Positions 28,306-49,843 of a stretch of DNA of 64,000 bases are shown in pieces. A program made the position numbers and the translations under genes. How positions within the stretch are numbered: the first letter of the stretch is position 1; each line of letters starts with the position of its first letter. The notes under the pieces are model-generated. The model searched no databases and was not told the DNA's origin. It saw nothing but the letters and a program-made list of their open reading frames with translations. The DNA comes from a virus, in IMG/VR virus record IMGVR_UViG_3300048110_000147, positions 1-64,000 of that record. One strand, given 5' to 3'.

Positions 28306-28485
28306 TTAAAATTTATTTGGAAACACTCGTTTCAATACTGCGGCGGCATCCTTGCGCTTCTTTTTGCGGTCATGCTTTTTTCGTACGATTACAGTATCGG
28401 AATCTTCCCCTGTGCCTGCGACACCAGAAGTGTTGTTCGTTATCTCTTCTTGGAACTGCTTCATGAATTCTTTATATGTTTTCAT
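28306..28485 (-). CDS. small putative internal head protein (59 aa, not in ORF track)
   Basis: Starts MKTYKEFMKQFQEE (cf. T4 IP CTS MKTYQEFIAE); basic tail. Confidence 0.6.
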   Translation of the reverse strand: MKTYKEFMKQFQEEITNNTSGVAGTGEDSDTVIVRKKHDRKKKRKDAAAVLKRVFPNKF

Positions 28486-29075
28486 TTTCGTATCTCGTTT
28501 GATGAGAATAATATGCGTTTACCTGTGCGTAGGTGAGTACCCTCGAATACAGGTATACCTAGAATATCGTGACATAAATTGTCTTCGGTGACCCGTACTT
28601 GATCCCCTTTACGTACCATATCTTCTCCACCCGATAGTACAGAGTTTTCTGCCATACGGTACATACCTTGACCTAAGTTACCATTGTCCAGTACATACCA
28701 CTGAGAGTTTTCAAGTAGCACATCCATGATATCGACACCAGTCTCTTCATGAATCTTTTGAATCTGTTTATCAGACAGATCACCGTCTTCTTTGATTAGT
28801 GCAAGTGCAGCACCATACCGTGCGACAATAGAGGAACCGCCTGGGACCTTAGCCATAAGTTTCTTTAGATTAAACACGAGACGATGGAACGAGGTGTAGT
28901 GAGTACGGTATGCATCGCGCTTATCCATATCCCCCATGTCATAATCTTTGACTTTATTTCCGTCTGCATCGATGATCCCTGCCTTGAATGCACCAGTATC
29001 TTCTATCTTGGTGACCAGCAGTTTCAGAAAACGAATTGTATAGACTACATCTGCAGCCGACTTTAGGATGCCCAT
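28482..29075 (-). CDS. conserved T4-like hypothetical (late) protein
   Basis: YTIRFLKLL...AFKAGIID..G...FHRLVFNLK. Confidence 0.75.
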   Translation of the reverse strand: MGILKSAADVVYTIRFLKLLVTKIEDTGAFKAGIIDADGNKVKDYDMGDMDKRDAYRTHYTSFHRLVFNLKKLMAKVPGGSSIVARYGAALALIKEDGDLSDKQIQKIHEETGVDIMDVLLENSQWYVLDNGNLGQGMYRMAENSVLSGGEDMVRKGDQVRVTEDNLCHDILGIPVFEGTHLRTGKRILFSSNEIRK

Positions 29076-29431
29076 CTTATTTCTCTCAATTTATCTATTA
29101 CGTATTTATCCATTTCGATACCTGTAATGTCATCATTTCTTATTGCTTGGAGAAAAACAAGGAAGGGTTTGATAGTCGGCCACTGTTCTAACGGTATTTT
29201 TACTGCCAACATCTCCACACCTGCTTCATTTCCAAACACATTAAAGATGACGATCAAATGGTTTAGGATAAGTCTTTCTGCAAGGTCTCCGTTCTGGTGG
29301 TATCGATTCACCAATCTCTTCACATACTTGAACCTCTTCAGATCGTCGAAGAATTCTTCTCCGTCGATGTGGGTGGGATTATAGTAGTGCTTTGCAGCAT
29401 AGACGACAAGATTATTTTTATTCAACTTCAT
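29063..29431 (-). CDS. conserved T4-like hypothetical protein
   Basis: YYNP...EF.DDLKRFKY...ERLILNHLI..FNVFG. Confidence 0.8.
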   Translation of the reverse strand: MKLNKNNLVVYAAKHYYNPTHIDGEEFFDDLKRFKYVKRLVNRYHQNGDLAERLILNHLIVIFNVFGNEAGVEMLAVKIPLEQWPTIKPFLVFLQAIRNDDITGIEMDKYVIDKLREIRWAS

Positions 29432-30371
29432 AATATGGATCTTTGAATCTCCTTAACCTGTATCCGCTTGGATACATTTCAATCTTATTTAGGTGGTCAA
29501 TAAGATCTGCTATCCAGTATAGGTCAAGGTTACCACTCCGTGTTGTACTGGCAGAATCTTGCATATACAGATAGGAGTACTTGGGCCTCTCGTCGCGCAC
29601 TTGCATATCCAGAACCCCATCATATGAGAGTTTCTTTAACTTGTAGTACTGTAGAACATCCTCACCTATCCTGTGGTCGGGGTCAAATCTAGTATGCTGT
29701 GCACCCTTACGTGAGTAAAACACCAGTCTATTCAGAGTGTTCATCATATCGCCATAGTCCACAGTATATTCCTCCAAAACCTTTCGGTTCGACATCCACT
29801 CTCTTGCGATGTCTTCGGGAATATTGTGTCTCATAAGTTTACGTATTTCCTGCTCATTGACTTTAGGAACATGGGTATTACGAGTTCTTTTATTTAAATC
29901 ATGGGTCCAGTGAGCAGTATGTTTTACGGGTATAAAGAAATGATCTTTCTTCACGCTCCTGCTATCTACCTGTTTTGAAAACAGATCAAAGAACCCGTCT
30001 TGAGGAGTCTGGACTGAGAGTTGATTTGCGAGACATATGATGTCTGGGGGAGAGTCGCCTAGCGCAACTGTGCGGTAAAGGTTTCTACCGTAGGGAGTGA
30101 TATAATCATCACCGTCGACTTGGACCATATACTCGTTATCGCTTTCTAAGAACTTATCGAGTAACGAGTTTTTACCTGTCGATGGTGTGCCGTCTGATTC
30201 TGTGACGTAGTGCTCTATATCATTGGACACACAAAAACGCGTGGCGATTTCAGAGTACTCTTCATTTAGAGTATTGATAACAACCACGGTCTCATTAGGT
30301 TTCAGAGCAATAAACTGACGTTCTAGTGTCTTTATATTACCACTAGTTAATACGTAGTATTTGAAAGACAT
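29418..30371 (-). CDS. GT-A glycosyltransferase-like protein (GT2-like)
   Basis: GKNSLL, VDGDD (DxDD), GED. Confidence 0.6.
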   Translation of the reverse strand: MSFKYYVLTSGNIKTLERQFIALKPNETVVVINTLNEEYSEIATRFCVSNDIEHYVTESDGTPSTGKNSLLDKFLESDNEYMVQVDGDDYITPYGRNLYRTVALGDSPPDIICLANQLSVQTPQDGFFDLFSKQVDSRSVKKDHFFIPVKHTAHWTHDLNKRTRNTHVPKVNEQEIRKLMRHNIPEDIAREWMSNRKVLEEYTVDYGDMMNTLNRLVFYSRKGAQHTRFDPDHRIGEDVLQYYKLKKLSYDGVLDMQVRDERPKYSYLYMQDSASTTRSGNLDLYWIADLIDHLNKIEMYPSGYRLRRFKDPYYEVE

Positions 30372-30374
30372 AAT

Positions 30375-30596
30375 CTATCCGTGATAGATTCCTGCTTCCT
30401 TTAATTTTGCAATCAGAACTTCTTTCTTACGTCTACGGTCCAATCTAACGCCGTTCTCTCGACCTAATGTATCCAACTCTTTCTTCGACATATCTTCGAT
30501 CATACGAGAAGATGTGCGAGGGTCTCCACAGACCACCCTATCTGGACGGTCCTGGCGAAAGAGATTTAGAATGTAATGAAATATATCCGAAAACAT
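30375..30596 (-). CDS. hypothetical protein
   Basis: MSKKEL..LGRE.GV.LDRR..K helix-extension-helix-like. Confidence 0.6.
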   Translation of the reverse strand: MFSDIFHYILNLFRQDRPDRVVCGDPRTSSRMIEDMSKKELDTLGRENGVRLDRRRKKEVLIAKLKEAGIYHG

Positions 30597-30613
30597 AATA
30601 TATCCTGTTTCAT

Positions 30614-31540: not shown

Positions 31541-31555
31541 AGTCTCCGTTAAATA

Positions 31556-31988: not shown

Positions 31989-32306
31989 TTACCACGCCCT
32001 ACATGACCAATAACGTGCTTTCCATTTAGGGCCAGGATTTGCACAATTATGCCTTGCCCTAAAACTTTTACGACGAGCCGGGTTGTCTTTCTTGATTTCC
32101 ATATTCGGATCACCGAATGAAACCTTGACTACATTACCCGATTCGTTCTTTGTATATACGTAAAACTTCTTAGAACCACCACGTACAGGTTTGTTCAAAG
32201 TAACTTTTCTACCTTGATGTTCTGCTTCGGTGATCTCTAATTCTTCGTCGAGAGACTTACACGCCTCACAACAACCTTCTTCTATGTACTGTTTAAACTT
32301 TTTCAT
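31989..32306 (-). CDS. putative internal head protein
   Basis: MKKFKQYIEE start; KKFYVY...VSFGD...RRKSFRARHNC...RYWSC. Confidence 0.7.
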   Translation of the reverse strand: MKKFKQYIEEGCCEACKSLDEELEITEAEHQGRKVTLNKPVRGGSKKFYVYTKNESGNVVKVSFGDPNMEIKKDNPARRKSFRARHNCANPGPKWKARYWSCRAW

Positions 32307-33181
32307 TTTGCAAGTAATGCTTTTGCCTTGGCGCTATCGTGGAAAGAGAATGTATAAGACTTACCGTCTTTTTCGTCCTTGACCACATAACCAGATTTGG
32401 TCATCTTAGTGATCTTGCCCATTCTCTTATCGCCATTCTTAGGTTCGTAGAAATCAACACCTCTTCCAACGTTGATTGAGTTCTTTGTCTCTGCGCCCAT
32501 GCCTTTAGTTGCAAGAGTTCGGTAATTTTCATCAAGCGATTCTACTGAGTCCTCTAACCCTTCACGCATAAGTTTACCACCTTTTACCCTGAATCCGTTA
32601 TCTTTTAGGATTTTAGTAATAGTGGTTCTCTTTACCAAGTCGTCCATATCCTTGAGCAACTTAGTTAAACCCATGAATGCTTTGTCCTGTACCCTTAAAG
32701 AAGAATTCATAAACATAACACGTGCGAATGCCGCGGCCTTCTCGAACTCAATACCCTTACTCTTATGTTTCAAGAGTTCATTAGATATCTTTTCAAAATC
32801 TGCGGCTTCGTCAAGTTCGACCGACTCATTAGTACCTAAAATCTTATATGATTTGATACTCGCAGCCATATTACCTAGTGCAAGAGTCGCGTCCTTACCA
32901 TTACGACTGTATAGATGGTACTTACCTTTACCATCAATGGTCATATTAATCTTGTCGACATTGTACTTTGCACTACGGGATGTACTCTTTACAGTGAAAA
33001 CTCGCTTCTGACTAGAACTAATAGAAGAACCGAAATCAATCTCAATTCGCATTCCCTTCTTTAACTTCTCAAAGTCAGACCGTGATACTGTTGCCTCTGT
33101 TAGACCAAGCTGTACCGACTCTTCGACAGACTCAAGCGCAGCAGTGACCTTACCTTCTCTTAATTCCTGAAATGTTTTCAC
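32303..33181 (-). CDS. putative modular internal head polyprotein
   Basis: MKTFQELRE start; repeated ESVELDE-type linkers. Confidence 0.65.
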   Translation of the reverse strand: MKTFQELREGKVTAALESVEESVQLGLTEATVSRSDFEKLKKGMRIEIDFGSSISSSQKRVFTVKSTSRSAKYNVDKINMTIDGKGKYHLYSRNGKDATLALGNMAASIKSYKILGTNESVELDEAADFEKISNELLKHKSKGIEFEKAAAFARVMFMNSSLRVQDKAFMGLTKLLKDMDDLVKRTTITKILKDNGFRVKGGKLMREGLEDSVESLDENYRTLATKGMGAETKNSINVGRGVDFYEPKNGDKRMGKITKMTKSGYVVKDEKDGKSYTFSFHDSAKAKALLAK

Positions 33182-33388: not shown

Positions 33389-35359
33389 TTAGAATGGATG
33401 ATCACTGTCTGGTGTAATATTGACTGGTGTTGCCGTAGTTAACGTTTCTTTGTTCAGAGTTAACAGTTCAGTGTCAGCGTCTGATATGAAAGCTGCAGCT
33501 GGCGGAGTAAAGTCTGCACTATAACGCGCAGCAGAACTTATACGGAAGTCAAACAACATTCCACCGAAGAATGCACCAATCTTGTGAGTTCCGGTAGTGC
33601 CGTAGTTCCTATCGTGTCCGTAACTTCCACCATATCCGCCTTGCTTAACACCATTCAGGTATAAGTCTACGGAAGCTGTTGGGTTTCCATTGACCGTAAT
33701 CGCTGGAGACTTAACGATAGCCCAGTGGTTCCACCCTGCTTCTTGCCATATTTGTCCGTCCCACGTCATGTTGACGTCTCCACTGCCGCCATCACGGAAC
33801 ATTATTTCAGTTCCGCCATCCCAACCACTTATAGCGATAGTGTGTCCGTTAGAGAATTCTATCAGATTATCGTTGCCTGGGTTAACACCATCGGTGTTCG
33901 CCCAGAATTCAATCGTCCATCCAGCATCACCGTTGCTGTGAGATAGAGAACCACCTTCATAAGTTGCATATGAAGATCCATTATCACCGAACTGCCATGC
34001 GAAAGATGGAGCTGGTGGAGCTGGCGGTGGTGGGAATGGGAATTGAACCATATGTAATCTAGTGCTGAATTGTTGAACGTGTTCTGATCGGTCAACATTA
34101 GGTTCGTCAATTCTGTAAGGTGTCGCAGATAGGTCACTTAGGTCATATTTCCATATGTATGATCCTGCAGCATTCCATACCTGATAAACAGATCCTGCAC
34201 CTGCACTTCCTCTATCCGAAACATATAGATAATCTCCATCTGAGACCATCGATGCACCAAATCGATCGGAACCTTGATCAGTATTATTAGATAACGGTGC
34301 TGTTATTATCTGACTAGGGGAAGACAAGTTTGACTTATCATATACATAAACCCTACCCTGTTGATTGTCACTCCCTACTTTTTCAAGCATAGCACTTATG
34401 ATAAACTTATCATTAGTTTCTACTACTTGAGAGGCAAATGCAGACCAGTCATTATTTGGAGATGGATAGTTTATAGTAGATACAAGGTTTCCGGTTGTTA
34501 TATCTCGTATCTGCATCTGACCATAATGATTAGTCGAATTATCAGGATTGTACGACGCATTTACGCCCACATAGATCTGACTTCCATCATTTGAAATACG
34601 TAGACCCATATAATCACAATTTCCTTGAAGATCTTGATCAGTTAGGTGTATTGGTGATGATAGGTCGGATAAATCATATATAGAAACATTTCCATAATTA
34701 GAATTAGGACTGGAATTATCATTGTAGGCTTCGTCACCTATAACTAGATGATTGTCATTGGCAGACATATATCTACCAAAATCGTATTGTGTGTTGACTG
34801 TAGGCCTGGTGTCCGTAATAATTGTTGGTGCCGCAGATAAATCACTAACGTCATAAACATAAATTTGACGACGACCTCTTGCAGAAACAAACAGGTGTGT
34901 ATCATTGGCCGCTATAGAATTACCAAAATAACCATACTCTTGAGGTGATGGTTCTGTTAATGTTGCGACAGGAGTGGTTAAGTCGGACTTATCGTAAGCA
35001 TATACTACACCTTGATTGATAAATCCACCAAGATCCTCATAATCAGCTGAAATAAATAATTGAGTATGGTTGGATGCTACGACACTCTCCCCGAACCGAT
35101 CACTATATCCACCCCACGGGTCAGTATCGCTGCCGTTAGGGTTATGGATTATGATAGGGTCCGCATCGATGTCATATACGTCAAACAAGTACAGTCTTTC
35201 CAGATATTTGTTAGTACCAGAAGTTCTGTTACCTTCAGCCACTCGTGCCATCAAATAGGTCGGAATTGGTGGTCCTACGTATGGTGGGTTGTCTGCGTCT
35301 ACACCGGCAATTACTTGACCGGCATTAAACACCGCACCCGCTAAAATTTGATTTGCCAT
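33389..35359 (-). CDS. virion structural/adhesin protein: beta-propeller repeats + LamG/ConA-like domain
   Basis: Repeats FG.S.......L.IS...G.VYVYD.SDLS; Pro-rich linker; WTIEFW...WNHWAIV...LYLNG...FRISS.ARY. Confidence 0.75.
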   Translation of the reverse strand: MANQILAGAVFNAGQVIAGVDADNPPYVGPPIPTYLMARVAEGNRTSGTNKYLERLYLFDVYDIDADPIIIHNPNGSDTDPWGGYSDRFGESVVASNHTQLFISADYEDLGGFINQGVVYAYDKSDLTTPVATLTEPSPQEYGYFGNSIAANDTHLFVSARGRRQIYVYDVSDLSAAPTIITDTRPTVNTQYDFGRYMSANDNHLVIGDEAYNDNSSPNSNYGNVSIYDLSDLSSPIHLTDQDLQGNCDYMGLRISNDGSQIYVGVNASYNPDNSTNHYGQMQIRDITTGNLVSTINYPSPNNDWSAFASQVVETNDKFIISAMLEKVGSDNQQGRVYVYDKSNLSSPSQIITAPLSNNTDQGSDRFGASMVSDGDYLYVSDRGSAGAGSVYQVWNAAGSYIWKYDLSDLSATPYRIDEPNVDRSEHVQQFSTRLHMVQFPFPPPPAPPAPSFAWQFGDNGSSYATYEGGSLSHSNGDAGWTIEFWANTDGVNPGNDNLIEFSNGHTIAISGWDGGTEIMFRDGGSGDVNMTWDGQIWQEAGWNHWAIVKSPAITVNGNPTASVDLYLNGVKQGGYGGSYGHDRNYGTTGTHKIGAFFGGMLFDFRISSAARYSADFTPPAAAFISDADTELLTLNKETLTTATPVNITPDSDHPF

Positions 35360-35381: not shown

Positions 35382-35654
35382 TTATGCTAAGTCTTTGTCA
35401 TGGTTGAGGCCGCCTTTCTTCTTCTTGACGATGAAAGCGTTAACCCTTGCCATTCCCCATTGTTGTGGTGTGGTGCCTGGGCGGTGACCCGTTTTCCATG
35501 CAGCAACCCCTCTATTATATACTTTACGCAAAGTGTCCGATGATATACCAGACTTCTTTGACTTCGCTGCGATACCATCTGGACCTTCATCAAGATCTAG
35601 GGTATCATACATTCCATATCTCTTTTCACTGAGATATTGTTTAAATTTTATCAT
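35382..35654 (-). CDS. putative internal head protein (DUF5824-like)
   Basis: MIKFKQYLSE start; VYNRGVAAWKTGHRPGTTPQQWGMARVN. Confidence 0.65.
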   Translation of the reverse strand: MIKFKQYLSEKRYGMYDTLDLDEGPDGIAAKSKKSGISSDTLRKVYNRGVAAWKTGHRPGTTPQQWGMARVNAFIVKKKKGGLNHDKDLA

Positions 35655-37351
35655 GCCAAATCTCCGATCATTTGTGCAAGTGCTTTGCGATCCATATCCA
35701 GTCCAAATTTACGAATTGCATTCGCGGCATGGAATTCATGAGACCTTCCGTCACCAGACTTCTTCAATTCTTTTTTGATATACTGTGCAACTTTAGTGTA
35801 TTTATTCTTATTAACAGTCTTGGCTCCGATCTTATGCATTAAATCAGTTACCCAGTTTTCTAGTATATCGTTTTCTTCTGCAACACAATTAGGGACCATC
35901 TTGTTCCCTTTCTTCTTCATACCAACTTCTTTGTACCCATCCCAACAATCTTCATCGTACATGTCTTTAAATGACTTGGTGTACTTGGATGGTTTAGTCT
36001 TAGCGGTCTTATCTCCAGGCGCTGGTTTATATGCAGATGAATCGTCGTCTGCTTTCTTACCATGTTTCTTGAAGTGTGCATCACGCTTTACCTTAGTAGA
36101 CTTTTCAAGTCCCTTGTGGTAGCGAGATGGTTGAGTACCCTCACGGTCTTTGATATCTGGATCCTGTGACTCATACCTGATTATAGGACCATCTGTCCTA
36201 TAATCTTTTTTACGCATGATACTTTTACCATATACTTGAAACTTACCGTCATCATATTTCACAACAACGGGGATGTTTATATCAGACTGTATATCTTTCA
36301 ATACTGGCTGGATATCGGTATCTCCATATTGCTTAATGCCTTTGCCCTTATTCTTTACAATTTTCTTAAGCAGACGTTGGAGTTCTGTTACCTTGATAGC
36401 AGGGTCATTTCTCTTATCGTTCATACGGTCTGCAAAGTGTGGTGTAAATTTAATGTCAATGTTGAACTTCTTCAACATACGATCACTGAACTTTTTTAAA
36501 TCGTTAAGTTGCGCTTGGGACACATTTTCGGAGATCAACTCCACAGCCTCTAGCCACTTGCGCATCTTCTTACCATCGTTGGTTTCAACGATAACGTAGT
36601 TTGCACCTAGGACGGATATAGTAGCAACCTCATCACTTTCTTTGATTACTACCATATCCCCTACCTCGAACAATTCACCTTGCACGAACTTCTCTCGTGT
36701 TTCGGATACTGTCTCTAGTTCTAGGTGATTACGGAATTCACTGGCTTCCTTTAATCCCATACCTCTACGCACGTCGTTGAATAGCTTACGTGTGTCTGGA
36801 TTGGACATGGATTTAGGAACACCCTGTGAGAAAGAAACGAAATCATTATTAGATGCGTTCTCTCTTTGTTTTGAAGCTGACATACCTTCAATACCAATAG
36901 AATCTGGATCTCTCTTACCGGCAGATACTATTCTGATATTCTTGAAATTATAAAAACCATGTCTTGCTTTCTGTCCGTTGTACTTGTTCAACAGGACTTC
37001 GAATTCTGTAATTCTGTCGTCACCGACAACCATAGTTACTGACTTATAACCTTGGTCATACAGTGCGACCATGGCGTTGATAGCGGTCTTAACAGACTTA
37101 TCTACCATGATATTCCGTGCATGTTTCGGAAACATCTTACGAGTGTGTTTGATTTTATCGGAGTACGATAGCGGATTCTTCTTTGCGTCCTGTGATTGTG
37201 ACGCAAATACTTTATAGTCTGATTTCCCAGACTTCATCGCTAACGCATCCATTACCTTGCCGTGTCCCACCGTAGGTGGATTCATACGACCAAACGTGAA
37301 ATATACTTCGCGTTCCTCTTCAACAAGGTATTGACTGAAATTTTTAATCAC
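35651..37351 (-). CDS. HxGH nucleotidyltransferase (phage 'cytidyltransferase') polyprotein with appended modules
   Basis: FGRMNPPTVGH, KNPL, VGDDR, GMSASKQR; CTS-like MIKNFSQYLVEE. Confidence 0.85.
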   Translation of the reverse strand: MIKNFSQYLVEEEREVYFTFGRMNPPTVGHGKVMDALAMKSGKSDYKVFASQSQDAKKNPLSYSDKIKHTRKMFPKHARNIMVDKSVKTAINAMVALYDQGYKSVTMVVGDDRITEFEVLLNKYNGQKARHGFYNFKNIRIVSAGKRDPDSIGIEGMSASKQRENASNNDFVSFSQGVPKSMSNPDTRKLFNDVRRGMGLKEASEFRNHLELETVSETREKFVQGELFEVGDMVVIKESDEVATISVLGANYVIVETNDGKKMRKWLEAVELISENVSQAQLNDLKKFSDRMLKKFNIDIKFTPHFADRMNDKRNDPAIKVTELQRLLKKIVKNKGKGIKQYGDTDIQPVLKDIQSDINIPVVVKYDDGKFQVYGKSIMRKKDYRTDGPIIRYESQDPDIKDREGTQPSRYHKGLEKSTKVKRDAHFKKHGKKADDDSSAYKPAPGDKTAKTKPSKYTKSFKDMYDEDCWDGYKEVGMKKKGNKMVPNCVAEENDILENWVTDLMHKIGAKTVNKNKYTKVAQYIKKELKKSGDGRSHEFHAANAIRKFGLDMDRKALAQMIGDLA

Positions 37352-40833: not shown

Positions 40834-40885
40834 CTCTAGAATCCTCTTTACTCTAAGTTAGTCCCTAGAGTATAACAGATACTAT

Positions 40886-41983: not shown

Positions 41984-41998
41984 ACAATTCTTACTAAA

Positions 41999-42148
41999 CT
42001 ACTTTTCCTTATTTATACTCTTTTCTTTCTTGACAGATTCCTCTGTCTTTTTGTCTTTACCGAAGATTTTATCCCAGTTATCTCTACCTTGTTTTGATAA
42101 CGTCTTAGACTGTATTGCGTCTCCGGTTATGTCGTTTCTACTTACCAT
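41999..42148 (-). CDS. small conserved phage protein
   Basis: RNDITGD.I.SK...NWDKIFGK. Confidence 0.55.
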   Translation of the reverse strand: MVSRNDITGDAIQSKTLSKQGRDNWDKIFGKDKKTEESVKKEKSINKEK

Positions 42149-42273
42149 CTTCTTTCGCTTTGCTCCACCAATCTTTGGTAACTTTATCGGTGTACTTGTG
42201 TGAGTATATGAGAGTGATGCCACCAAAAACCATCGGACATAACATCACTCCAAGTATTCCTATTAAACCAAAA

Positions 42274-42507
42274 TCAAACATTTTCAATCTGGCTCTTTAC
42301 CCAATCTAGTTCTTGAATGATTCTGTTATACCATGCGACATCAATTTCAGAATTGTTAGGATTGTTTGCTTCCATCCTAAGTTGTTCCATTCGTATGTCT
42401 ATGTAGTCACACCTTATAAATTCTTTTTTAGACACTCTATCTAAGAATGCTTTTTTCGCTAAGGTCAAGCATTCTACATTACTATTACTATTACTCATTG
42501 GACACAC
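42274..42507 (-). CDS. hypothetical protein
   Basis: DYI..RM.QL...WYNRIIQEL.WV. Confidence 0.55.
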   Translation of the reverse strand: MCPMSNSNSNVECLTLAKKAFLDRVSKKEFIRCDYIDIRMEQLRMEANNPNNSEIDVAWYNRIIQELDWVKSQIENV

Positions 42508-43913
42508 CCTAATTCTCTGCGCGAATCTTCGTCGTTGTTAGTTACACAGAGACCAGTAGGCAACTCTGTAGGTACATATCTCATCAAGTCTGGGTCATAT
42601 AAACTATTTTCTAAGAATGATACCAGATTAGATATCTCTTCCTCAGACAGATCTAGGGGAGTGAATCTATAGTCTATATCTATAAGATCTACATCTGGGT
42701 GTTGTGGTGTTGCCGCAACTTTGTATCGTACCACTTCTTCAACACTAGTGAATGATGCACCGTGACCGAATACTTCTGTGTCTGTCAGATTATATAGAGG
42801 CGGTACCTTAAATGCATACTTCTCCATATCGTCACCAGTAAAACCAGCGCGGCCTTCTCTAACACCTTCACCGACTTCACCGATGATATCGTCCCACATG
42901 TCTAGATCGTGGAATCCAAGTGTCATAAACACTTCACTTGCAAGAGAACCGACAGGAGATGAAAGAGCGGGACCGTTGTGACACGAGTGACAGTTACCTT
43001 TACCGAAGAACACTTTCGCGCCTTCGACTTCTTCTAAAGTCATCGCGTCTTCGTCACCACGTAAGAAGTCTTGAAATGGTGCTTGGTTTGCGAGAATGGT
43101 TCTCTCGTATGCGGCAATCGCAAAAGATGCTGCTTCTAACATATCATTAGGTTGTGAGGTACCGTATGCCGCTTCGAACATCATCCGATACTTCTCATTA
43201 GTAGTGAGCACAGAACCTTCTTCTACATTCATGCGATGTACACCTAGACCAGCAACTGCTTGAGTCTCTAGACCAGCAAGATTACGTAGGTTAGCCTCTT
43301 TAGGAGTGCCTTCAGTGAAGTGCCTTTCAGGGTCAATACCAATGTTAACTATACCTCCGATCACATTGCCGAACTGTCCGTTCCACAACATGACTTCTTG
43401 ATATGCAGTATTAAGTACTGTGGGTGATGTCACAGGTTGTACATCAACTGTTGAAGGGTCAACTCCAGCAGCAACTGTACGATGGTCAAACCCTACACCG
43501 CCTTCACCAATACCTTGACGAATACCGGACTTGAAACCATTCTGTCCGTTGTGACATGAAGCACAGGACCACGTGTTATCCATATCTGTCTGGTTGGTTT
43601 CAGTAGACGTGATTCCCGTCTCGTGATAAATGAACTTACCCAACTCTACTTTTTCAGCAGTAATAGGGTTACTTGGATCTTGAGGGATGTTTAGAAAGTC
43701 ATCACTCTCAGGTAAGATATACCCTTCGTAAGAACCTGTCGGGGATGTAGTACTCATCACAGTTTTTAGTTCTTCAACGGCAATCTCAAGTGCTGTTAAG
43801 GTAGGTGCTGGGGGTGGTGCGATGGTAACAGGTTCTGGTGCAGATTCTGAACCACCTCCAGAACATGCGCTAAGAACAGTAGTACATAATACTACGGATA
43901 ATAGTTGTTTCAT
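42495..43913 (-). CDS. di-heme cytochrome c peroxidase/MauG-family lipoprotein
   Basis: LSAC lipobox; NPIT.EKVELGK; CASCH and CHSCH; WNGQ; FKVPPL.N; FL..L. Confidence 0.9.
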   Translation of the reverse strand: MKQLLSVVLCTTVLSACSGGGSESAPEPVTIAPPPAPTLTALEIAVEELKTVMSTTSPTGSYEGYILPESDDFLNIPQDPSNPITAEKVELGKFIYHETGITSTETNQTDMDNTWSCASCHNGQNGFKSGIRQGIGEGGVGFDHRTVAAGVDPSTVDVQPVTSPTVLNTAYQEVMLWNGQFGNVIGGIVNIGIDPERHFTEGTPKEANLRNLAGLETQAVAGLGVHRMNVEEGSVLTTNEKYRMMFEAAYGTSQPNDMLEAASFAIAAYERTILANQAPFQDFLRGDEDAMTLEEVEGAKVFFGKGNCHSCHNGPALSSPVGSLASEVFMTLGFHDLDMWDDIIGEVGEGVREGRAGFTGDDMEKYAFKVPPLYNLTDTEVFGHGASFTSVEEVVRYKVAATPQHPDVDLIDIDYRFTPLDLSEEEISNLVSFLENSLYDPDLMRYVPTELPTGLCVTNNDEDSRRELGCVQ

Positions 43914-43943
43914 TGTTTCGATCTCTCACTTCTAATAATAAAA

Positions 43944-44034
43944 TGGCCGAGGGATAGGGATTCGAACCCTAGATACGCTATTAACGTATGCCAGTTTTCA
44001 AGACTGGTGCATTCAACCGCTCTGCCATCCCTCG
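43944..44034 (-). tRNA. tRNA-Ser(UGA)
   Basis: CCAGT-CT-TGA-AA-ACTGG, long variable arm, CCA. Confidence 0.93.
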
Positions 44035-44093
44035 ATTTATTTAAACATGATACACTAATTGACAGGAGTTGTCAACCCCACTTTCATATTTTC

Positions 44094-44170
<77 letters not shown>

Positions 44171-44180
44171 GTAGAAAAGT

Positions 44181-44255
44181 TGGCTGGGGTGGAAGGATTC
44201 GAACCTACGAATGACGGGATCAAAACCCGTTGCCTTACCACTTGGCGACACCCCA
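44181..44255 (-). tRNA. tRNA-Gln(UUG)
   Basis: ACGGG-TT-TTG-AT-CCCGT, CCA. Confidence 0.95.
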
Positions 44256-44314
44256 AACCTGTTTGCTCTACTGGGCACCACTGATTCAGTTATTTTAAAA
44301 GGGGAATCAGACCC

Positions 44315-44674
44315 TTAGTTTTTTCTCAATCCTTCTTTGCCTTTGTGAAATCTTCCCCAGATACAGTGTGCCACTTCATGACCAATAAGTTCCGGTTCGT
44401 ATTTCCATTCAGGGTCCTTTATGTATATCTTACAAGTTCCCTTAGATTCGTTCCAAAGAGTGAAGGCGCTAATATTGTTCCACTTAACGCCTAAGTACTG
44501 TTTACGTACAGAATCATATTCCATTTGGTTCTTTAGTAAAACAAACTCGACCTTTGGTGTAAGATTTTCTCCTTCCTTAACAAGGAATTTAAAATTATCT
44601 TTAGCATACCTTCCCAGTCTCTGAGCATCTGCTGAAACCGATAAGACTAATAGGAATATTAATAGTTTTCGCAT
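44315..44674 (-). CDS. secreted HExxH protein, paralog of 7857..8234
   Basis: Signal peptide; C.IY...GHEVAHCIWGRFH. Confidence 0.65.
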   Translation of the reverse strand: MRKLLIFLLVLSVSADAQRLGRYAKDNFKFLVKEGENLTPKVEFVLLKNQMEYDSVRKQYLGVKWNNISAFTLWNESKGTCKIYIKDPEWKYEPELIGHEVAHCIWGRFHKGKEGLRKN

Positions 44675-44692
44675 AATTGTAAACAGTAAAAA

Positions 44693-44769
44693 TGGTCGGA
44701 GATGTAGGATTTGAACCTACGACCCCTGCACCCCAAATGCAGTGCACTACCAGACTGTGCTAATCTCCG
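44693..44769 (-). tRNA. tRNA-Pro(UGG)
   Basis: CTGCA-TT-TGG-GG-TGCAG, CCA. Confidence 0.95.
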
Positions 44770-44982
44770 TTAATTGTTTGAAACAAATTCGTTGATGACT
44801 TTTACCCTTTCCATGATATCTTGCATATTAGGGTATGTCGGAAACTCTGGGATGGTATCAACGCCACCAGTTTCAATCAAGACTTCTCGGCGATTTACTT
44901 GAGCCCAGTACTCATCTGTTAGGACATTTCTTGCTTCGTTAAAGATTTGGAACCGAAGTTCGTATGGGTTTGGATTAGACAT
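44770..44982 (-). CDS. conserved T4-like hypothetical protein
   Basis: NPYELR..I...A...P.YP...I......N.FVS; AGGAG RBS. Confidence 0.7.
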   Translation of the reverse strand: MSNPNPYELRFQIFNEARNVLTDEYWAQVNRREVLIETGGVDTIPEFPTYPNMQDIMERVKVINEFVSNN

Positions 44983-45013
44983 AATTGTCTCCTTTTGTGT
45001 GTGTTTGTGTGTT

Positions 45014-45082
45014 GAGCAGTTTTCCACATACTCAGGTGACGGGCGTAACGACCAGTGCAAGTTTAAAGTCATTCCGAGACTA
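45014..45082 (-). ncRNA. candidate structured RNA (hairpin + H-type pseudoknot) 3' of tRNA-Tyr
   Basis: AGUC-UCGGAAU-GACU hairpin; CAC/GUG with loop GAGUA pairing UGCUC. Confidence 0.45.
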
Positions 45083-45084
45083 AT

Positions 45085-45168
45085 TGGTGGGGAGAGGTGG
45101 ATTCGAACCACCGAAGCTCTCGCGTCAGATTTACAGTCTGATCCCTTTGGCCGCTCGGGAACCTCCCC
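45085..45168 (-). tRNA. tRNA-Tyr(GUA)
   Basis: TCAGA-CT-GTA-AA-TCTGA, CCA. Confidence 0.95.
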
Positions 45169-45174
45169 TAGTGG

Positions 45175-45327
45175 TTATTTGAGTTGATCTTTTGAACTGG
45201 ATGAACTATTTGATCCAGTCCCTGTACCACTACTTTTACCGTGACCTAGTCCACGCTTACCTTGTCGGAACCGATTGACAAAGTAAATGACCACTGCTAC
45301 TAGAAAAACTACCGCTAATACTTCCAT
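45175..45327 (-). CDS. small membrane protein
   Basis: AGGAG RBS; N-terminal TM, Ser/Gly tail. Confidence 0.5.
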   Translation of the reverse strand: MEVLAVVFLVAVVIYFVNRFRQGKRGLGHGKSSGTGTGSNSSSSSKDQLK

Positions 45328-45337
45328 ATCTTTCTCC

Positions 45338-45550
45338 TTAGTCGAGGATAATTTCCTCGCGCTTCTTCTTAGCAGGTTGGCGAATTCCAAGGTAAGTTTC
45401 GAGAATCTCGATCTCCTTGTCCTTACGCTTCTGCCACTGTTGCTCCGTTCGAGCAACCCCTTTCTTGCTGTTCTTCTCAAAGAACTTTGACTCTGTGAGT
45501 CTCTCTAATGCACCTTCACGGCGACGACGATCTTCTAACTTACCTCTCAT
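45338..45550 (-). CDS. basic hypothetical protein
   Basis: AGGAG RBS; RRREGALERL. Confidence 0.55.
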   Translation of the reverse strand: MRGKLEDRRRREGALERLTESKFFEKNSKKGVARTEQQWQKRKDKEIEILETYLGIRQPAKKKREEIILD

Positions 45551-45893
45551 AAACGCTCCTAGTTTCTTTATTAAGATCAATGGAATCTATATAAACTGAC
45601 TCGTTGACATAATCGCCTTTGGGTATGGTTCCTTGTTCAAAAGGTTTATCATCATACCTGTTAACCCAAAAACGTACGACCTTACCTTTATCATTAAGGG
45701 TATACCCACAAAGTTTTTCATTGGGATATGCATAATATGAACCATTAAAATTACCCTCTTTATCAAAGGGATTGCGCAGTCCATTTGACTCATGTTCCCT
45801 AGCAGTAATATAGGGGGATACCGAAATAAATTCTTTCTCTACCATACTTGGTCTAGTAGACACTTTTGATGGCATTCCAAGTGCATCTCTCAT
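45540..45893 (-). CDS. hypothetical protein
   Basis: 117 aa, GAGG RBS. Confidence 0.55.
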   Translation of the reverse strand: MRDALGMPSKVSTRPSMVEKEFISVSPYITAREHESNGLRNPFDKEGNFNGSYYAYPNEKLCGYTLNDKGKVVRFWVNRYDDKPFEQGTIPKGDYVNESVYIDSIDLNKETRSVYER

Positions 45894-45922
45894 AAACTAT
45901 CCTCATTTCCTCATTATAAAAT

Positions 45923-45999
45923 TGGCGGAGCGGACGGGACTCGAACCCGCGACCCCCGGCGTGACAGGCCGGTATTCTAACCAACTGAACTACCGCTCC
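45923..45999 (-). tRNA. tRNA-Asp(GUC)
   Basis: CCGGC-CT-GTC-AC-GCCGG, CCA. Confidence 0.95.
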
Positions 46000-46168
46000 A
46001 GATTCTTCTTAAATATGTATGCTCGGTATCCGATGACTCCAAAACAAAAATGTCGCCTTCCTTGAATGAGGATATAGATAAATCTAATTTCTCCTCATCT
46101 TTGTTCAACAACTTGACCCCATTGATGTCTTCTTCGAATTTATAACCTAAGTAAAACATTGAACTCAC
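45977..46168 (-). CDS. hypothetical protein (3' end overlaps tRNA-Asp)
   Basis: 63 aa ORF. Confidence 0.45.
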   Translation of the reverse strand: MSSMFYLGYKFEEDINGVKLLNKDEEKLDLSISSFKEGDIFVLESSDTEHTYLRRIWSGSSVG

Positions 46169-46545
46169 GAGTTCTCCAAATCATGTACATGTAACTGGAT
46201 CAATGCATAATGGAGAACCTTCATTAGGTCTTTACGAGCATCATCCTCAGTACCTTTCTTACCATACCGTTGTGCATACTTCAACACGTTTCCAATACAA
46301 AACCCTGTACCATGACCACCGTCAACAATAAATTCAGTCGCCTGAAACTTGTCTTTGGCATAATGCTGATTGTATGTCGCATCGATATATTGTTTGAACT
46401 CATCAATCAACTTACCTTCACTAAACTTATAGTCCACAGTACTAATATCAGCAGCTTCTCGCATTGTTACACCGTTCGAGTATCTCTCAAACTCTACCGT
46501 CTCATTAGTATAAGGTGGAGTGTGTGCATAAATCGTTTTACTCAT
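46165..46545 (-). CDS. DUF3310-like protein
   Basis: HY...GFCIGNVLKYAQRYGKK...DLMK..HY. Confidence 0.8.
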   Translation of the reverse strand: MSKTIYAHTPPYTNETVEFERYSNGVTMREAADISTVDYKFSEGKLIDEFKQYIDATYNQHYAKDKFQATEFIVDGGHGTGFCIGNVLKYAQRYGKKGTEDDARKDLMKVLHYALIQLHVHDLENS

Positions 46546-46546
46546 A

Positions 46547-46834
46547 TTACCATTCTCTCAATATAGTTGTGCCTAACATAAACAATGAAACCGTGTTCAA
46601 CATAATCAACGCACGGTCTTTCCATATAACAGATACCCAAGTCCATAGTATAATGCCTGCGAACCCGATTGTCAAGTCATACATGCGATAGTCTGGTCCG
46701 GCAGATCGCATCGCCATTGAAATTAAAATCAAAATAGAAGCGACCCACTTGAGATACCAATCGAAGTCATCGGGGTACCACGAACGATCCGGTTTAGTTC
46801 GACCATCTGCTCTTACTTGAGGGTCTCCGTTCAC
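46547..46834 (-). CDS. 3-TM membrane protein (DUF6552-like)
   Basis: DWYLKWVAS...W.DRALI.LN. Confidence 0.65.
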   Translation of the reverse strand: MNGDPQVRADGRTKPDRSWYPDDFDWYLKWVASILILISMAMRSAGPDYRMYDLTIGFAGIILWTWVSVIWKDRALIMLNTVSLFMLGTTILREW

Positions 46835-47184
46835 GATTTACTTCCGATAGTACGACGAACGATATCGTTGTGATTGAACTCTGCCCAATACAACTCAAAT
46901 GCAACTCCGTCTTTGAGACCTTCGAACTGGTGAATCTTTCCTGGCTTGACTTGAGTGAACTCTCCCGCACGTAGAATGGTCTCATCGACAAGACCGTCTT
47001 GGTCATCTTGCCATACGCGCACGATCATCTCACCAGATTCTACGAAGAACCCGTTCCACTTATATTCATGGAGATGTTCGGAGCACTTGAAACCTTTCTT
47101 GTATTCGATACGATGAAACTCTAGAACGCCATTCGCATGAATGAGTTCTGTCTGTCCCCAAATCTTTCCTGCCTTCATAGTCAT
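46831..47184 (-). CDS. cupin domain protein
   Basis: K.WG; CSEH.H..K...F.V..G; PG..HQF. Confidence 0.8.
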   Translation of the reverse strand: MTMKAGKIWGQTELIHANGVLEFHRIEYKKGFKCSEHLHEYKWNGFFVESGEMIVRVWQDDQDGLVDETILRAGEFTQVKPGKIHQFEGLKDGVAFELYWAEFNHNDIVRRTIGSKS

Positions 47185-47209
47185 ACTACTCTCACTGGAT
47201 CATAATTAT

Positions 47210-47294
47210 TGGTGCGAAAGGAGAGACTCGAACTCTCACGCCGTGAAGCACTGGTACCTAAAACCAGCGTGTCTACCAATTCCACCACTCTCGC
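47210..47294 (-). tRNA. tRNA-Leu(UAG)
   Basis: CTGGT-TT-TAG-GT-ACCAG, variable arm, CCA. Confidence 0.95.
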
Positions 47295-47298
47295 ATAT

Positions 47299-47374
47299 TG
47301 GCTGGCAAGGCAGGGCTCGAACCTGCGACCAGATGATTAACAGTCATCGGCTCTACCAACTGAGCTACTTGCCA
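47299..47374 (-). tRNA. tRNA-Asn(GUU)
   Basis: GATGA-CT-GTT-AA-TCATC, CCA. Confidence 0.95.
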
Positions 47375-47443
47375 ATAAAAACTTCACTATTTGATAAACA
47401 TTGTATCATAGTAATACCTGTCTGTCAATAGCGAATGAAATAT

Positions 47444-47662
47444 TTATTCTCCTACCGCTGCTCTTGCAACTAATTCTTCTTGTGTCACCTTACGACTCAC
47501 AAGTTCGTTACGAAACTTTTGCTTCAACTTTGGGGTGCGACACGACAAGAACTCTTTCCACAGATTGTCTGAAGACAAATTCTTTACGTAGAACCTTTGG
47601 GTTGTTGTCTTTCCAGTCATCCGATCTTTGTTGACTGTATCTTCTTTATACTTAATTGGCAT
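47444..47662 (-). CDS. hypothetical protein
   Basis: GAGG RBS; PK.KQK.RNELV.R. Confidence 0.55.
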   Translation of the reverse strand: MPIKYKEDTVNKDRMTGKTTTQRFYVKNLSSDNLWKEFLSCRTPKLKQKFRNELVSRKVTQEELVARAAVGE

Positions 47663-47669
47663 TCTTACC

Positions 47670-47894
47670 TCACATTTTAAAATAGGGTAACGCAACATTT
47701 TCTACGTTAACTTCGCTTTCTTCTTCAGCGCCACACCAAGAACATTCCTGTCCTCTGGCAACGTAGATATGACCATCGTGCATACAATGATGACTCCACA
47801 TGACCGTGCGCATGTTCATATAGAAGCATTCGTTGAACACTTCGTCCCACACTTTATTGCCTGTTTTGGAAATAGGTGACTGTGCAATATCCAT
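47670..47894 (-). CDS. hypothetical zinc-binding protein
   Basis: W.H.C...CSWCG. Confidence 0.5.
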   Translation of the reverse strand: MDIAQSPISKTGNKVWDEVFNECFYMNMRTVMWSHHCMHDGHIYVARGQECSWCGAEEESEVNVENVALPYFKM

Positions 47895-47910
47895 TTCTCT
47901 CTCCAACTAA

Positions 47911-47985
47911 TGGTATCCCGTAGGGGACTCGAACCCCTGTTACCGCCGTGAAAGGGCGGTGTCCTAACCTCTAGACGAACGGGAC
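47911..47985 (-). tRNA. tRNA-Glu(UUC)
   Basis: CCGCC-CT-TTC-AC-GGCGG, CCA. Confidence 0.95.
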
Positions 47986-47990
47986 ACTGT

Positions 47991-48248
47991 TCACTGTATC
48001 CTTTCTATTAGAATCGTGACTTCTCCTAGAAGCCCTCTTACTGTAATTACCCAATCAAAGACATCAACGTGTACTGTATCATATTGATAGTCTTTAGTCA
48101 CTTCATCAGCAGCGCGGTCTATTGCTCTTTCTGCGTCACCGTACACACATATAAGTCCACCTGTGTGATCGTACAATATATATGCATTATTTACCTCTAC
48201 TTCTTCCGGAAACAATCCTGTTGGAAGAGATGCATAATCGATTGACAT
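47991..48248 (-). CDS. hypothetical protein
   Basis: 85 aa ORF. Confidence 0.55.
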   Translation of the reverse strand: MSIDYASLPTGLFPEEVEVNNAYILYDHTGGLICVYGDAERAIDRAADEVTKDYQYDTVHVDVFDWVITVRGLLGEVTILIERIQ

Positions 48249-48250
48249 TT

Positions 48251-48778
48251 TTATCCCTCTTTGTAGAAAATATGGTCTCCTATTCTACCTACTAATCGCA
48301 TCCTTTCATGAGTGCTCCACGAAGGATTTACATAATTGGCATGATAATGAGTAGACCCCTCTGTTATACCATTGTACTTACGGAAGAAAATCATATCTCT
48401 TGCTACATCTTTTGCACGTAACCACGAGTATGTTTCTAACGGTTCATCTGCAAGACCGTCACAATACCAACTAAACTGACACATATTGCGCCTTGGTATC
48501 TCTAGTCCTCTATCAAGTCCCCATTGACTCAGTACTGCCTGTTTAACTACTCCACAGATAGTCGATGGGTAACGTCGGTCTTGTACACGGTTTAGAGTAA
48601 CATCCGCAACTGCGTACTGTCCCGCAACACTTTCACTTCTTGCCTCATGGTATATATTCAAAGCTAAACACTCAACTTCGTCATTATCTTGCATCCGTGG
48701 TGTTTCGGCATGTGCAAGTGTAATATATCCTATAAAACCAAGAATAGATAGTGCTATTGACAAACGTATCATAAACAT
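48251..48778 (-). CDS. cell wall hydrolase (SleB/Hydrolase_2)
   Basis: CLALNIYHEARSE, V.LNRV, CQFSWYCDG, THYHA.YV.P.W, IG.HIFY. Confidence 0.92.
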   Translation of the reverse strand: MFMIRLSIALSILGFIGYITLAHAETPRMQDNDEVECLALNIYHEARSESVAGQYAVADVTLNRVQDRRYPSTICGVVKQAVLSQWGLDRGLEIPRRNMCQFSWYCDGLADEPLETYSWLRAKDVARDMIFFRKYNGITEGSTHYHANYVNPSWSTHERMRLVGRIGDHIFYKEG

Positions 48779-49165
48779 CTCCAGCTGAATTTATAGAACC
48801 ATTATACACTTCTTTTGAGAAGATGTCAAACAGTTTTCCGTAAAAGTTTTAGATATTTTGCTAACTGCTTCTTCTGTTTAGGACTAGGGTTATCTCCCGC
48901 CTTCGCCAAAAGAACAGCATACTCTCTTGCAATGTTTGATTGATAACTCAAGATACACCTTCCACGCTAAAGTAACCACATACCGTCTTGATAGCAGATA
49001 TGATTTCTTCATCTTCTTTGGGGCACAAATGGGGGATTGTATCTGATAAATTTCTGACCATCAATCGATCAAGACTTTCATCATCAACTTCTAACTGAAC
49101 TAGCATAAACACCTCAGTGGTTCTTTGTAATGTGAGAGTAATTATACTATATTATGATGGGTGTG

Positions 49166-49843
49166 TCAACTACCTTTTAGATTTTTTCGTTCTGCTGCTA
49201 TCCACTTTTCTGCTTTCTTAGAGACAGGTTTGTCAGTGAATTTCTTTGCATCGCGGTATGCAGTCAAAGTTTCTTTCTCGTAGTTCTTACCTTGAGAGTT
49301 ATCGACCACCAAGAAGTTAGGTTTACCGAACATGCGCTGGAATTTACCAATGTTACGTTGCACTAACTTCCAATATTCAGTTACACCCTTCTCTCCTAGA
49401 GTACGTGGTCGCATTGCGTCACGAGCGATAGCAGTTTCGAGATCGGTGTTAACGAAAATCATTGCGACATCATAACCCATCTCTTTTAGTTTCTTTGCTT
49501 GAGTTGCGACCTTGTCTGGATCTTTACCAGTACCATCGATCACTAATCCAAGACGACCTTTTAAGTATCTTGCTTCTTTGGTACCAGTAAGTTTTTTAGC
49601 CTTACCACGAACCTCTTGTCCCTTTGGTGAGAAGATGTTGTCTGGAGTCATGTCCATACCAATCTTCTTCATTCCAGCCTCGAACGCATCGTCGGAGTTT
49701 ACAACCTTATAACCAAAGGACTGTAATCCAGTTTTACCGACAATGAAAGATTTACCAGAGCCAGGACCACCCGCAAGGAAGATCGCCTTGAAGATTGCTG
49801 GATCATTTACACCTTCGTCGAGAAAGGACTTAAAAGATATCAT
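49166..49843 (-). CDS. P-loop kinase (zeta toxin/AAA_33/Pnk-like), putative internal protein
   Basis: AGGPGSGKS, NSDD, LVIDGTG, AIARD..R.R lid; MISFKSFLDE start. Confidence 0.85.
   Translation of the reverse strand: MISFKSFLDEGVNDPAIFKAIFLAGGPGSGKSFIVGKTGLQSFGYKVVNSDDAFEAGMKKIGMDMTPDNIFSPKGQEVRGKAKKLTGTKEARYLKGRLGLVIDGTGKDPDKVATQAKKLKEMGYDVAMIFVNTDLETAIARDAMRPRTLGEKGVTEYWKLVQRNIGKFQRMFGKPNFLVVDNSQGKNYEKETLTAYRDAKKFTDKPVSKKAEKWIAAERKNLKGS

Follow-up and report, generated by a model that had tools for sequence, protein, structure and literature searches.

Putative late proteins of a marine T4-like myovirus, whose 96.9-kb contig (IMG/VR record IMGVR_UViG_3300048110_000147) we analysed through its first 64 kb (the window, 64,000 nucleotides), carry a leader peptide of the type found on the internal proteins of T4. 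At least ten proteins have this leader, and they probably ride in the virion and are delivered with the DNA. In our best explanation, the leader would dock each protein into the scaffolding core of the prohead, a prohead protease of the S77 (gp21) type would remove it after the Glu of a hydrophobic-x-E site, and the mature protein would stay in the head with the DNA, most likely leaving with it at infection. Small basic proteins would travel in this way together with three enzymes: a DUF6267 protein, an (H/T)xGH nucleotidyltransferase (NMNAT/cytidylyltransferase superfamily), and a P-loop kinase of the Pnk/PSTK/zeta type. Broken nucleic-acid ends, in RNA or at nicks of the incoming genome, would be phosphorylated by the kinase and sealed by the ligase-like DUF6267 enzyme as soon as infection starts, with the nucleotidyltransferase supplying or regenerating the nucleotidyl donor. 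Leader-based packaging is well supported for this phage and we regard it as likely. Cleavage of the leader, extrapolated from T4, appears just as likely, and ejection with the DNA, again by analogy, is somewhat favoured. We put forward the repair role at entry, in which broken ends are phosphorylated and sealed, only tentatively, and the explanation as a whole, packaging and repair combined, is likewise a tentative one.

The nearest phage record is Phage C48C1 (Kyanoviridae), with 78% identity over half of a 6-kb probe, and the closest cultured relatives of the kinase are in Methylophilales phage Melnitz and Pelagibacter phage HTVC008M. The source phage probably infects a heterotroph.

A T4-type leader on putative late proteins

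The original prediction from the sequence of the window was that nine open reading frames (ORFs) start with one common pattern resembling that of T4 internal proteins. All nine exist with the starts and N-termini given there. They lie on the minus strand and start at 28485, 32306, 33181 (GTG), 35654, 37351 (GTG), 37716, 38969, 39448, and 49843. The common N-terminus, about 10 residues long, reads M-x(1-3)-F/Y-x-x-hydrophobic-hydrophobic-x-E, and every leader ends in [LIVMF]-x-E or Q-E-E. As originally worded, the pattern fits 11 of the 146 non-overlapping ORFs of the contig. Nine of these sit at 28-50 kb, and of the remaining two, one is the major capsid protein and one an ORF at 2457, which is likely a chance match. 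Shuffling residues 2-25 gave a mean of 1.04 pattern matches and a maximum of 6 (2000 shuffles); among 612 internal Met positions, just 2 matched.

The likeness to T4 internal proteins was borne out by comparison with the T4 record (AF158101), where the N-termini of IPI, IPII, and IPIII closely match the window leaders. In that record, ipII and ipIII have the classical targeting sequence at their start, ipI has a variant close to it, and the starts of Alt and gp24 are related. As in IPI, IPII, IPIII, and Alt, the window leader comprises about 10 N-terminal residues of the same pattern with hydrophobic-x-E at its end. The targeting sequence is all that T4 internal proteins have in common; it loads the scaffolding core and can bring foreign proteins into heads (PMC3012670). 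In the structure models of the DUF6267 protein and the kinase, the only long stretches with a predicted local distance difference test score (pLDDT) below 50 are residues 1-9 and 1-12, respectively, which are the leaders and lie outside the fold. The leader genes adjoin a tRNA cluster, as does T4 ipI, and T4 Alt is a precedent for an enzyme carried in the head. Unlike the T4 cargo, which consists of restriction inhibitors and an ADP-ribosyltransferase, the cargo of the window would include an RNA-ligase-fold enzyme, an (H/T)xGH nucleotidyltransferase, and a P-loop kinase. T4 internal proteins are processed and injected; for the cargo of this phage, both steps are predicted.

Outside the window, the contig encodes a T4-type head module with a portal protein, a weak gp67-like ORF, an ORF of 65 amino acids (aa), a Peptidase_S77 prohead protease (E-value 1.4e-39), a T4_CASP scaffold, and Gp23. 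Like T4, the phage has its own protease, scaffold, and capsid protein of this type. The F-L-A-E/A site of its Gp23 (the slash marks the cut) aligns with the T4 maturation site F-L-T-E/A, and because of this alignment the specificity of the prohead protease is probably conserved. The 65-aa ORF bears the tenth leader and holds the position of gp67/gp68; it has no family match.

The leader genes had also been placed downstream of late promoters. The window contains 12 copies of the motif TATAAATA where 3.8 are expected; 0 of 100 shuffles reach 12, and 11 of the copies are on the coding strand. Three copies of this putative late-promoter motif precede three gene runs, as had been claimed. A sigma-70-like promoter, TTGACA-16-TATACT at 40869-40896 on the minus strand (11/12 matches, with TG), overlaps the copy that heads the main run. 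The leader genes and these motifs are as follows.

40883..40890, minus strand: TATAAATA, putative late-promoter motif heading the main gene run
38969..39448, minus strand: 159-aa leader protein of no firm family, with a weak DUF6934 match
37749..38969, minus strand: DUF6267 leader protein with a predicted RNA-ligase-fold core (K56 in KWDG, D126, E367-G368, K381)
37348..37716, minus strand: 122-aa leader protein, very basic and internal-protein-like
35651..37351, minus strand: 566-aa leader protein with an (H/T)xGH nucleotidyltransferase domain at about residues 15-210, followed by further modules that include the first half of DUF5824
35382..35654, minus strand: 90-aa protein with its own leader, corresponding to the second half of DUF5824
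32303..33181, minus strand: 292-aa leader protein with a GTG start and no family match
31989..32306, minus strand: 105-aa Cys-rich leader protein, phrog_7595, with a homologue fused to DUF6267 in P0125
31973..31980, minus strand: TATAAATA motif heading the next gene run, whose last gene is the 59-aa leader ORF
28306..28485, minus strand: 59-aa leader protein with a basic tail
50157..50164, minus strand: TATAAATA motif that precedes the kinase gene and an ORF of membrane type (91 aa)
49166..49843, minus strand: 225-aa P-loop kinase with leader (Zeta_toxin/AAA_33)
78992-79189 of the contig, outside the window, minus strand: tenth leader ORF, 65 aa, GTG start, preceded by two TATAAATA copies and followed directly by the prohead protease gene

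A leader-like start, M-I-T-F-R-K-E-V-F-E, was also seen on a 143-aa ORF at 18490-18921 (minus strand; phrog_461), downstream of TATAAATA at 19218-19225. The original pattern misses this ORF, which may encode an eleventh cargo protein.

The leader in related proteins

Judging by its distribution among homologues, the leader appears to be a separable module. The strict leader pattern is present in 118 of the 120 closest homologue clusters of the kinase, and the remaining two have hydrophobic-x-E directly before the conserved G-V-N-D-P domain start. For DUF6267, the core lies at most 60 residues from the start in 124 of 150 representatives (50% identity), 25 of which start directly at the core (K-N-x-H-x-x-H-x-E-D), the others having an N-terminal extension. 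Where at least 9 residues precede the core, [LIVMF]-x-E is found in the preceding 12 residues in 104 of 111 representatives (94%), compared with 12% of background windows. Fused proteins keep the site even at their internal junctions, and some retain the whole leader including its Met. Such internal sites fit a scheme in which multi-domain precursors would be processed by the protease.

DUF5824 provides a further example. Profile positions 1-55 are in the 566-aa protein of the window and positions 63-125 in the 90-aa ORF at 35382-35654, while HTVC008M and P0123 have the domain in a single protein. The second half is thus the C-terminus of the nucleotidyltransferase protein in HTVC008M and a separate, leader-bearing ORF in the window and in C48C1.

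The deposited cytidyltransferase of C48C1 (12364-13707 of the stretch examined) has no leader, its annotated start being too far downstream. With tblastn, the leader and first 215 residues of the window nucleotidyltransferase align to C48C1 at 89% identity, showing that the leader is conserved there. It should also be noted that a second type of N-terminus, M-K/R-I/V-x-E/D-I/L/V, is present on seven DUF6267 representatives with 30-250 extra N-terminal residues (P0148, P0175, P0189, P0206, P0235, P0239, and P0240). It may be the leader of another phage lineage.

Codon usage varies among the leaders while the residue pattern stays, so the likeness is at the level of protein rather than that of a DNA repeat, and selection acts on the peptide. 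A DNA repeat or a translation signal as the source of the leader was ruled out by this codon diversity and by the sites at internal junctions of fusions.

These data bear on a reading in which the common N-terminus has nothing to do with the capsid and is a translation-initiation or mRNA feature, a recombination linker between cassettes, or chance. Well-translated genes often have AAA-rich codons after the start, as this reading would have it. For the linker variant, T4-type phages are described as shuffling cassettes at conserved sequences (PMC4122927). Neither point accounts for a residue pattern that is kept as codons change, for 11 pattern matches where about 1 is expected, or for a hydrophobic-x-E site at junctions where no translation start is needed. 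Together with the virion data from cyanophages described below, in which leader presence tracks detection in the proteome, these observations leave a capsid-unrelated origin close to refuted.

Homologues of the leader proteins in published virion proteomes

That these proteins are carried in virions had been proposed for the window phage, and published mass spectrometry of purified virions supports this for homologues of the nucleotidyltransferase and of the kinase domain (PMC3037559, PMC9602691, PMC9146016, PMC6102473). The NMNAT-like part of the proposal was already in print and is not new. The window protein at 35651-37351 is a homologue, with 38% identity over about 270-290 residues, of a cyanomyovirus virion protein called cytidylyltransferase or NMNAT-like (T4-GC190; S-SM1, S-SCSM1, S-SZBM1, and S-CBWM1). 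T4-GC190 is a core gene adjoining the DUF6267 gene, and its product is found in purified virions and has the same kind of leader; the window protein differs in being longer (566 aa) and in having extra modules. In S-SM1 virions, T4-GC190 was detected with 25 counts, along with the neighbouring products 1453, 1454, 1455, 425, and 426 (PMC3037559 Table S8). S-SM1 GC190 and GC1455 both begin with the leader. So does the NMNAT-like virion protein of S-SCSM1, whose authors note the recurrent detection of such proteins in cyanophage virions (PMC9602691), and so does the cytidylyltransferase on the virion list of S-SZBM1 (PMC9146016). The DUF6267 homologues of S-SM1 and S-SZBM1 have no leader and are on neither published virion list. 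Published accounts of the cyanomyovirus protein give its presence in virions; the leader and the ligase-like partner are not described in those consulted here.

For the kinase, the informative case is the jumbo Agrobacterium phage Atu_ph07. Six consecutive paralogous genes of this phage (677-7611 of the stretch examined) start with M-K/R-W-x-x-L-x-E, and we equated them with gp53-58 by exact molecular weight. All six products were detected in virions, gp53 with 31 peptides and 45% coverage (PMC6102473 Table S5). The kinase domain of gp53 (87.07 kDa) is 42% identical to the window kinase, and the protein has a leader of its own type. By its sequence, this start appears to be a second, lineage-specific version of the leader. 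Across these few published cases, leader presence tracks virion presence. The idea that the enzymes are delivered as one kit holds in part: the leader-bearing nucleotidyltransferase is in S-SM1 and S-SZBM1 virions, but the leaderless DUF6267 protein is not listed there, so the enzymes are not always delivered as a set.

The proteomes also speak to the possibility that the leader targets the prohead core but the proteins act in assembly or inside the head, for example on packaged DNA or other core proteins, or are degraded like scaffold, with the real work of the enzymes being done in the producing cell. T4 gp21 destroys the core proteins gp22, gp67, and gp68 (T4 record annotation), and the tenth leader ORF is in the gp67/gp68 position. 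A role in the producing cell would also suit the leaderless cyanophage DUF6267, which indicates that the enzyme can work unpackaged, and the overlap of a sigma-70-like promoter with the putative late promoter. However, the homologues are not degraded, having been recovered from mature purified virions (25 counts in S-SM1; 31 peptides and 45% coverage in Atu_ph07), and the catalytic residues of DUF6267 are invariant in 106 sequences. Furthermore, a filled head to our knowledge contains no adenosine triphosphate. We consider this head-assembly role unlikely, and favour packaging followed by delivery with the DNA.

DUF6267 is predicted to have an RNA-ligase fold

The protein at 37749-38969 had been read as a ligase-type nucleotidyltransferase, and this reading holds at the level of fold and motifs. 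The sequence contains KWDG, QGD, EGYV, and VKLV, and its AlphaFold2 (AF2) model has a pLDDT of 93.9. When the model was compared with known structures by VIA-align, the top 17 rows were nick-sealing RNA ligases (NgrRnl, REL1, and T4 Rnl2), with Z-scores of 7.3-8.6 over 175-191 residues, followed by DNA ligases (Z ~6-6.7) and archaeal RNA ligases. K56, D58, G59, D126, E367, G368, and K381 are invariant in 106 DUF6267 sequences with 35-57% identity to the query, and in the model K56-x-D58-G59, D126, E367-G368, and K381 lie on strands like ligase motifs I, III, IV, and V. The structure comparison that had been proposed was divided, as VIA-align finds the RNA-ligase fold and Foldseek does not.

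The best structural matches, T4 Rnl2, T. brucei REL1, and Naegleria NgrRnl/Rnl5, agree with DUF6267 in the order KxDG ... D ... EG ... K. In DUF6267, unlike these enzymes, a helical insert of 130 residues (at about residues 219-346) separates motif IIIa from motif IV, and a conserved N-terminal K-N-x-H-x-x-H-x-E-D lies outside the listed ligase motifs. DUF6267 has no detectable sequence-profile relation to these ligases, and its ligase activity is a prediction. The model suggests that DUF6267 has a ligase-like covalent nucleotidyltransferase fold that is closest to nick-sealing RNA ligases without belonging to a named Rnl family (Rnl1-5).

The nucleotidyltransferase and the kinase

The protein at 35651-37351 had been assigned to the HxGH nucleotidyltransferases of the NMNAT/PPAT superfamily. 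A domain of the superfamily is present, although its motif is not a literal HxGH but T-V-G-H, the (H/T)xGH variant, accompanied by a C-terminal S-A-S-K-Q-R (S-x-S/T-x-x-R motif). The protein matches the 'cytidyltransferase' families phrog_3041 and phrog_395 with E-values of 5.6e-68 and 4.2e-67. Pfam PF01467 (CTP_transf_like) reaches 20.2 bits against a cut-off of 21 in the window protein and exceeds the cut-off in the fused homologues P0123 and P0227. NCBIfam yielded no usable result, its one match being a faint one to TIGR01526 nadR (E-value 0.074; 12 bits against a cut-off of 341), and the domain matched no PDB sequence.

For the gene at 49166-49843, the expected Pnk/zeta-like P-loop kinase was found. 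The protein has the P-loop GGPGSGKS, and Zeta_toxin (PF06414) matches with 41.2 bits against a cut-off of 22.3 (E-value 1.6e-10), with AAA_33 also above its cut-off. The Zeta_toxin match is at the level of the domain only, and no antitoxin partner is present. From the P-loop to N-S-D-D, the kinase aligns with T4 Pnk from its P-loop to N-R-D-D (35% identity over 40 residues, E-value 0.001). The model (pLDDT 79) is closest to PSTK (Z 14.3), a putative kinase, Clostridium Pnk (13.3), and a Trl1-type kinase, with adenylate kinases (about 12), zeta toxin (11.8), and T4 Pnk (11.6) just behind. An ESM Atlas search with the kinase returned only its own viral family.

A nucleotidyltransferase and a kinase side by side could also point to cofactor supply. 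The proteins would again be packaged, but the kinase and the NMNAT-like enzyme would act as in NadR, as riboside kinase and adenylyltransferase, and at entry make nicotinamide adenine dinucleotide (NAD+) or a dinucleotide related to it. Such a supply could offset defences that deplete NAD, or serve a step in which the ligase-like enzyme uses NAD. In HTVC008M the genes for the kinase and the nucleotidyltransferase are immediate neighbours, and the G-R-x-N-P-P-T-x-G-H of the window nucleotidyltransferase recalls NadM/NadR-type enzymes. The faint nadR NMN-adenylyltransferase match points the same way, and in S-SCSM1 the domain is annotated as NMNAT, with the authors proposing that virion NMNAT-like proteins tune NAD (PMC9602691). 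The window kinase also matches NRK1 and the NAD kinase AvrRxo1 in structure (Z ~10), but these rank below tRNA and polynucleotide kinases, and the NMNAT-type matches in Pfam and NCBIfam are at or below cut-offs. NAD supply leaves unexplained the strongly conserved RNA-ligase-fold partner, though it is the most frequent fusion partner of the nucleotidyltransferase. In addition, a few dozen packaged enzyme molecules would be a poor means of restoring a metabolite pool. Taken with the matches in its favour, NAD supply seems to us an improbable function of the set.

Genetic linkage of the three enzymes and a proposed repair function

Co-occurrence of the three genes across phages had been proposed as a check, and it is partial. 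DUF6267 and the nucleotidyltransferase do co-occur, but the kinase is not general. Among phage records, DUF6267 is present in 468 and the nucleotidyltransferase in 559, and the kinase in only 9. The counts for DUF6267 and the nucleotidyltransferase are 368/375 for Synechococcus phages, 61/61 for records named "Cyanophage", and 24/24 for Prochlorococcus phages. The two genes are adjacent, phrog_455 spans both, and they are fused in P0123, P0157, P0179, P0225, P0227, P0265, and BFVD entries. In HTVC008M, the gene row is DUF6267, a 170-aa gene, kinase, and nucleotidyltransferase.

We favour a repair function because a ligase fold linked to a Pnk-like kinase is a hallmark of RNA repair enzymes and because both models match Trl1/Pnkp components. 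A Pnk-like P-loop enzyme is genetically linked to a ligase-fold enzyme in T4 Pnk + Rnl1, bacterial Pnkp/Hen1, and fungal Trl1, and Trl1, Pnkp1, and the kinase domain of Clostridium Pnk are among the structural matches of the DUF6267 and kinase models. Unlike these pairs and fusions, which are made in the infected or stressed cell, the window enzymes are predicted to be carried in the virion, and their set includes an (H/T)xGH partner that is not in known RNA repair pairs.

Several observations weigh against this explanation. We know of no role of (H/T)xGH enzymes in RNA repair. The window cluster showed neither a 3'-phosphatase nor a cyclic phosphodiesterase, enzymes that a complete healing pathway requires and that set the known repair pairs apart. 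As modelled, the kinase fold does not separate polynucleotide kinases from adenylate kinase or zeta toxins. For DUF6267, the structural Z of about 8 obtained with the model is moderate, and Foldseek against the PDB gave no match at E-value <= 0.001, with carbonic anhydrases at the top of the list. Searches of PDB chains with phmmer and profiles found no meaningful match for DUF6267 or for a fused homologue, and when the DUF6267 profile was aligned to T4 Rnl2 and T4 DNA ligase with hhalign, the probabilities stayed below 3%. Neither cyanophages nor the nearest record, C48C1, have the kinase, and the sole kinase-DUF6267 fusion (P0121, metagenomic) is a singleton on a 2.9-kb contig, to which we give little weight. 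Because cyanophage DUF6267 is leaderless and was not found in virions (S-SM1, S-SZBM1), the enzymes need not act together at entry. Finally, the overlapping sigma-70-like promoter suggests that the cargo operon may be transcribed early as well as late, rather than purely late.

The predicted cargo resembles polyvalent and other head-packaged phage effectors, enzymes that are loaded into myovirus heads and used at entry (Iyer et al. 2017, PMC5512222; PMC9503650). As in polyvalent proteins, relatives of the window cargo fuse the same domains into long multi-domain proteins. The window domains differ in that they are mostly separate, each with its own leader, and that this leader is of the T4 type rather than a MuF or portal fusion. 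The enzyme trio was not found in the searched passages of a 2022 survey.

Other genes of the cluster

Two genes of the main run have no leader, and a tRNA array lies between this run and the kinase gene.

39457..40833, minus strand: 458-aa protein without leader, phrog_1462, first gene of the main run, with cyanophage homologues
33389..35359, minus strand: 656-aa FG-GAP/LamG protein without leader, in the main run
41908..47985, minus strand: array of ten tRNA genes, given for context only

The S-SCSM1 homologue of the 458-aa protein is annotated as a virion protein, and the FG-GAP/LamG protein is probably an external structural protein. The ten-tRNA array had been named in the original prediction and was located at the coordinates listed. 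Inside it, an ORF at 42495-43913 (minus strand) has a lipoprotein-like N-terminal signal and two CxxCH haem motifs of the di-haem cytochrome c peroxidase type, an unusual cargo for a phage. A highly charged 308-aa protein at 30614-31540 (minus strand) contains an EF-hand-like loop, D-x-D-N-D-G-D, and similar loops are present in the virion-detected proteins GC1454 of S-SM1 and gp280 of S-SCSM1.

Implications

Capsid targeting in T4, the head-borne enzyme Alt, and the virion NMNAT-like proteins of cyanophages are already known. Our literature search found no prior description of the leader on these marine phage enzymes, of a processing site before the DUF6267 core, of an RNA-ligase fold in DUF6267, or of the linkage of the three enzymes. 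The fold proposed here from the model would be the first structural assignment for DUF6267. The families involved are very common in the sea: the search with DUF6267 gave 8000 scored candidates when clustered at 90% and 2542 clusters at 50%, that with the kinase more than 7000 matching clusters, and the nucleotidyltransferase is a cyanomyovirus core gene (PMC3037559).

A defined leader explains why an "auxiliary metabolic" enzyme recurs in virion proteomes, and it offers a simple sequence test for head-riding proteins of uncultured T4-like phages. Cultured systems for direct tests exist in HTVC008M, Melnitz, S-SM1, and S-SZBM1; the first two have DUF6267, kinase, and nucleotidyltransferase genes similar to those of the window. 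In the most far-reaching version, which we regard as doubtful, abundant ocean myoviruses would inject with the genome a ready-made set for nucleic-acid repair, composed of a polynucleotide kinase, a nick-sealing RNA-ligase-like enzyme (possibly pre-adenylylated in the head), and an NMNAT-like recharger. If this is true, repair of broken tRNAs and mRNAs, or of phage DNA nicked by sunlight, would precede the expression of any phage gene, and a repair system delivered by the virion would be known for the first time. From the T4-type leader one could then also predict, by a rule at the level of sequence, which proteins uncultured marine phages eject. If the enzymes do act at entry, nucleic-acid repair or cofactor supply would join the known roles of ejected phage proteins.

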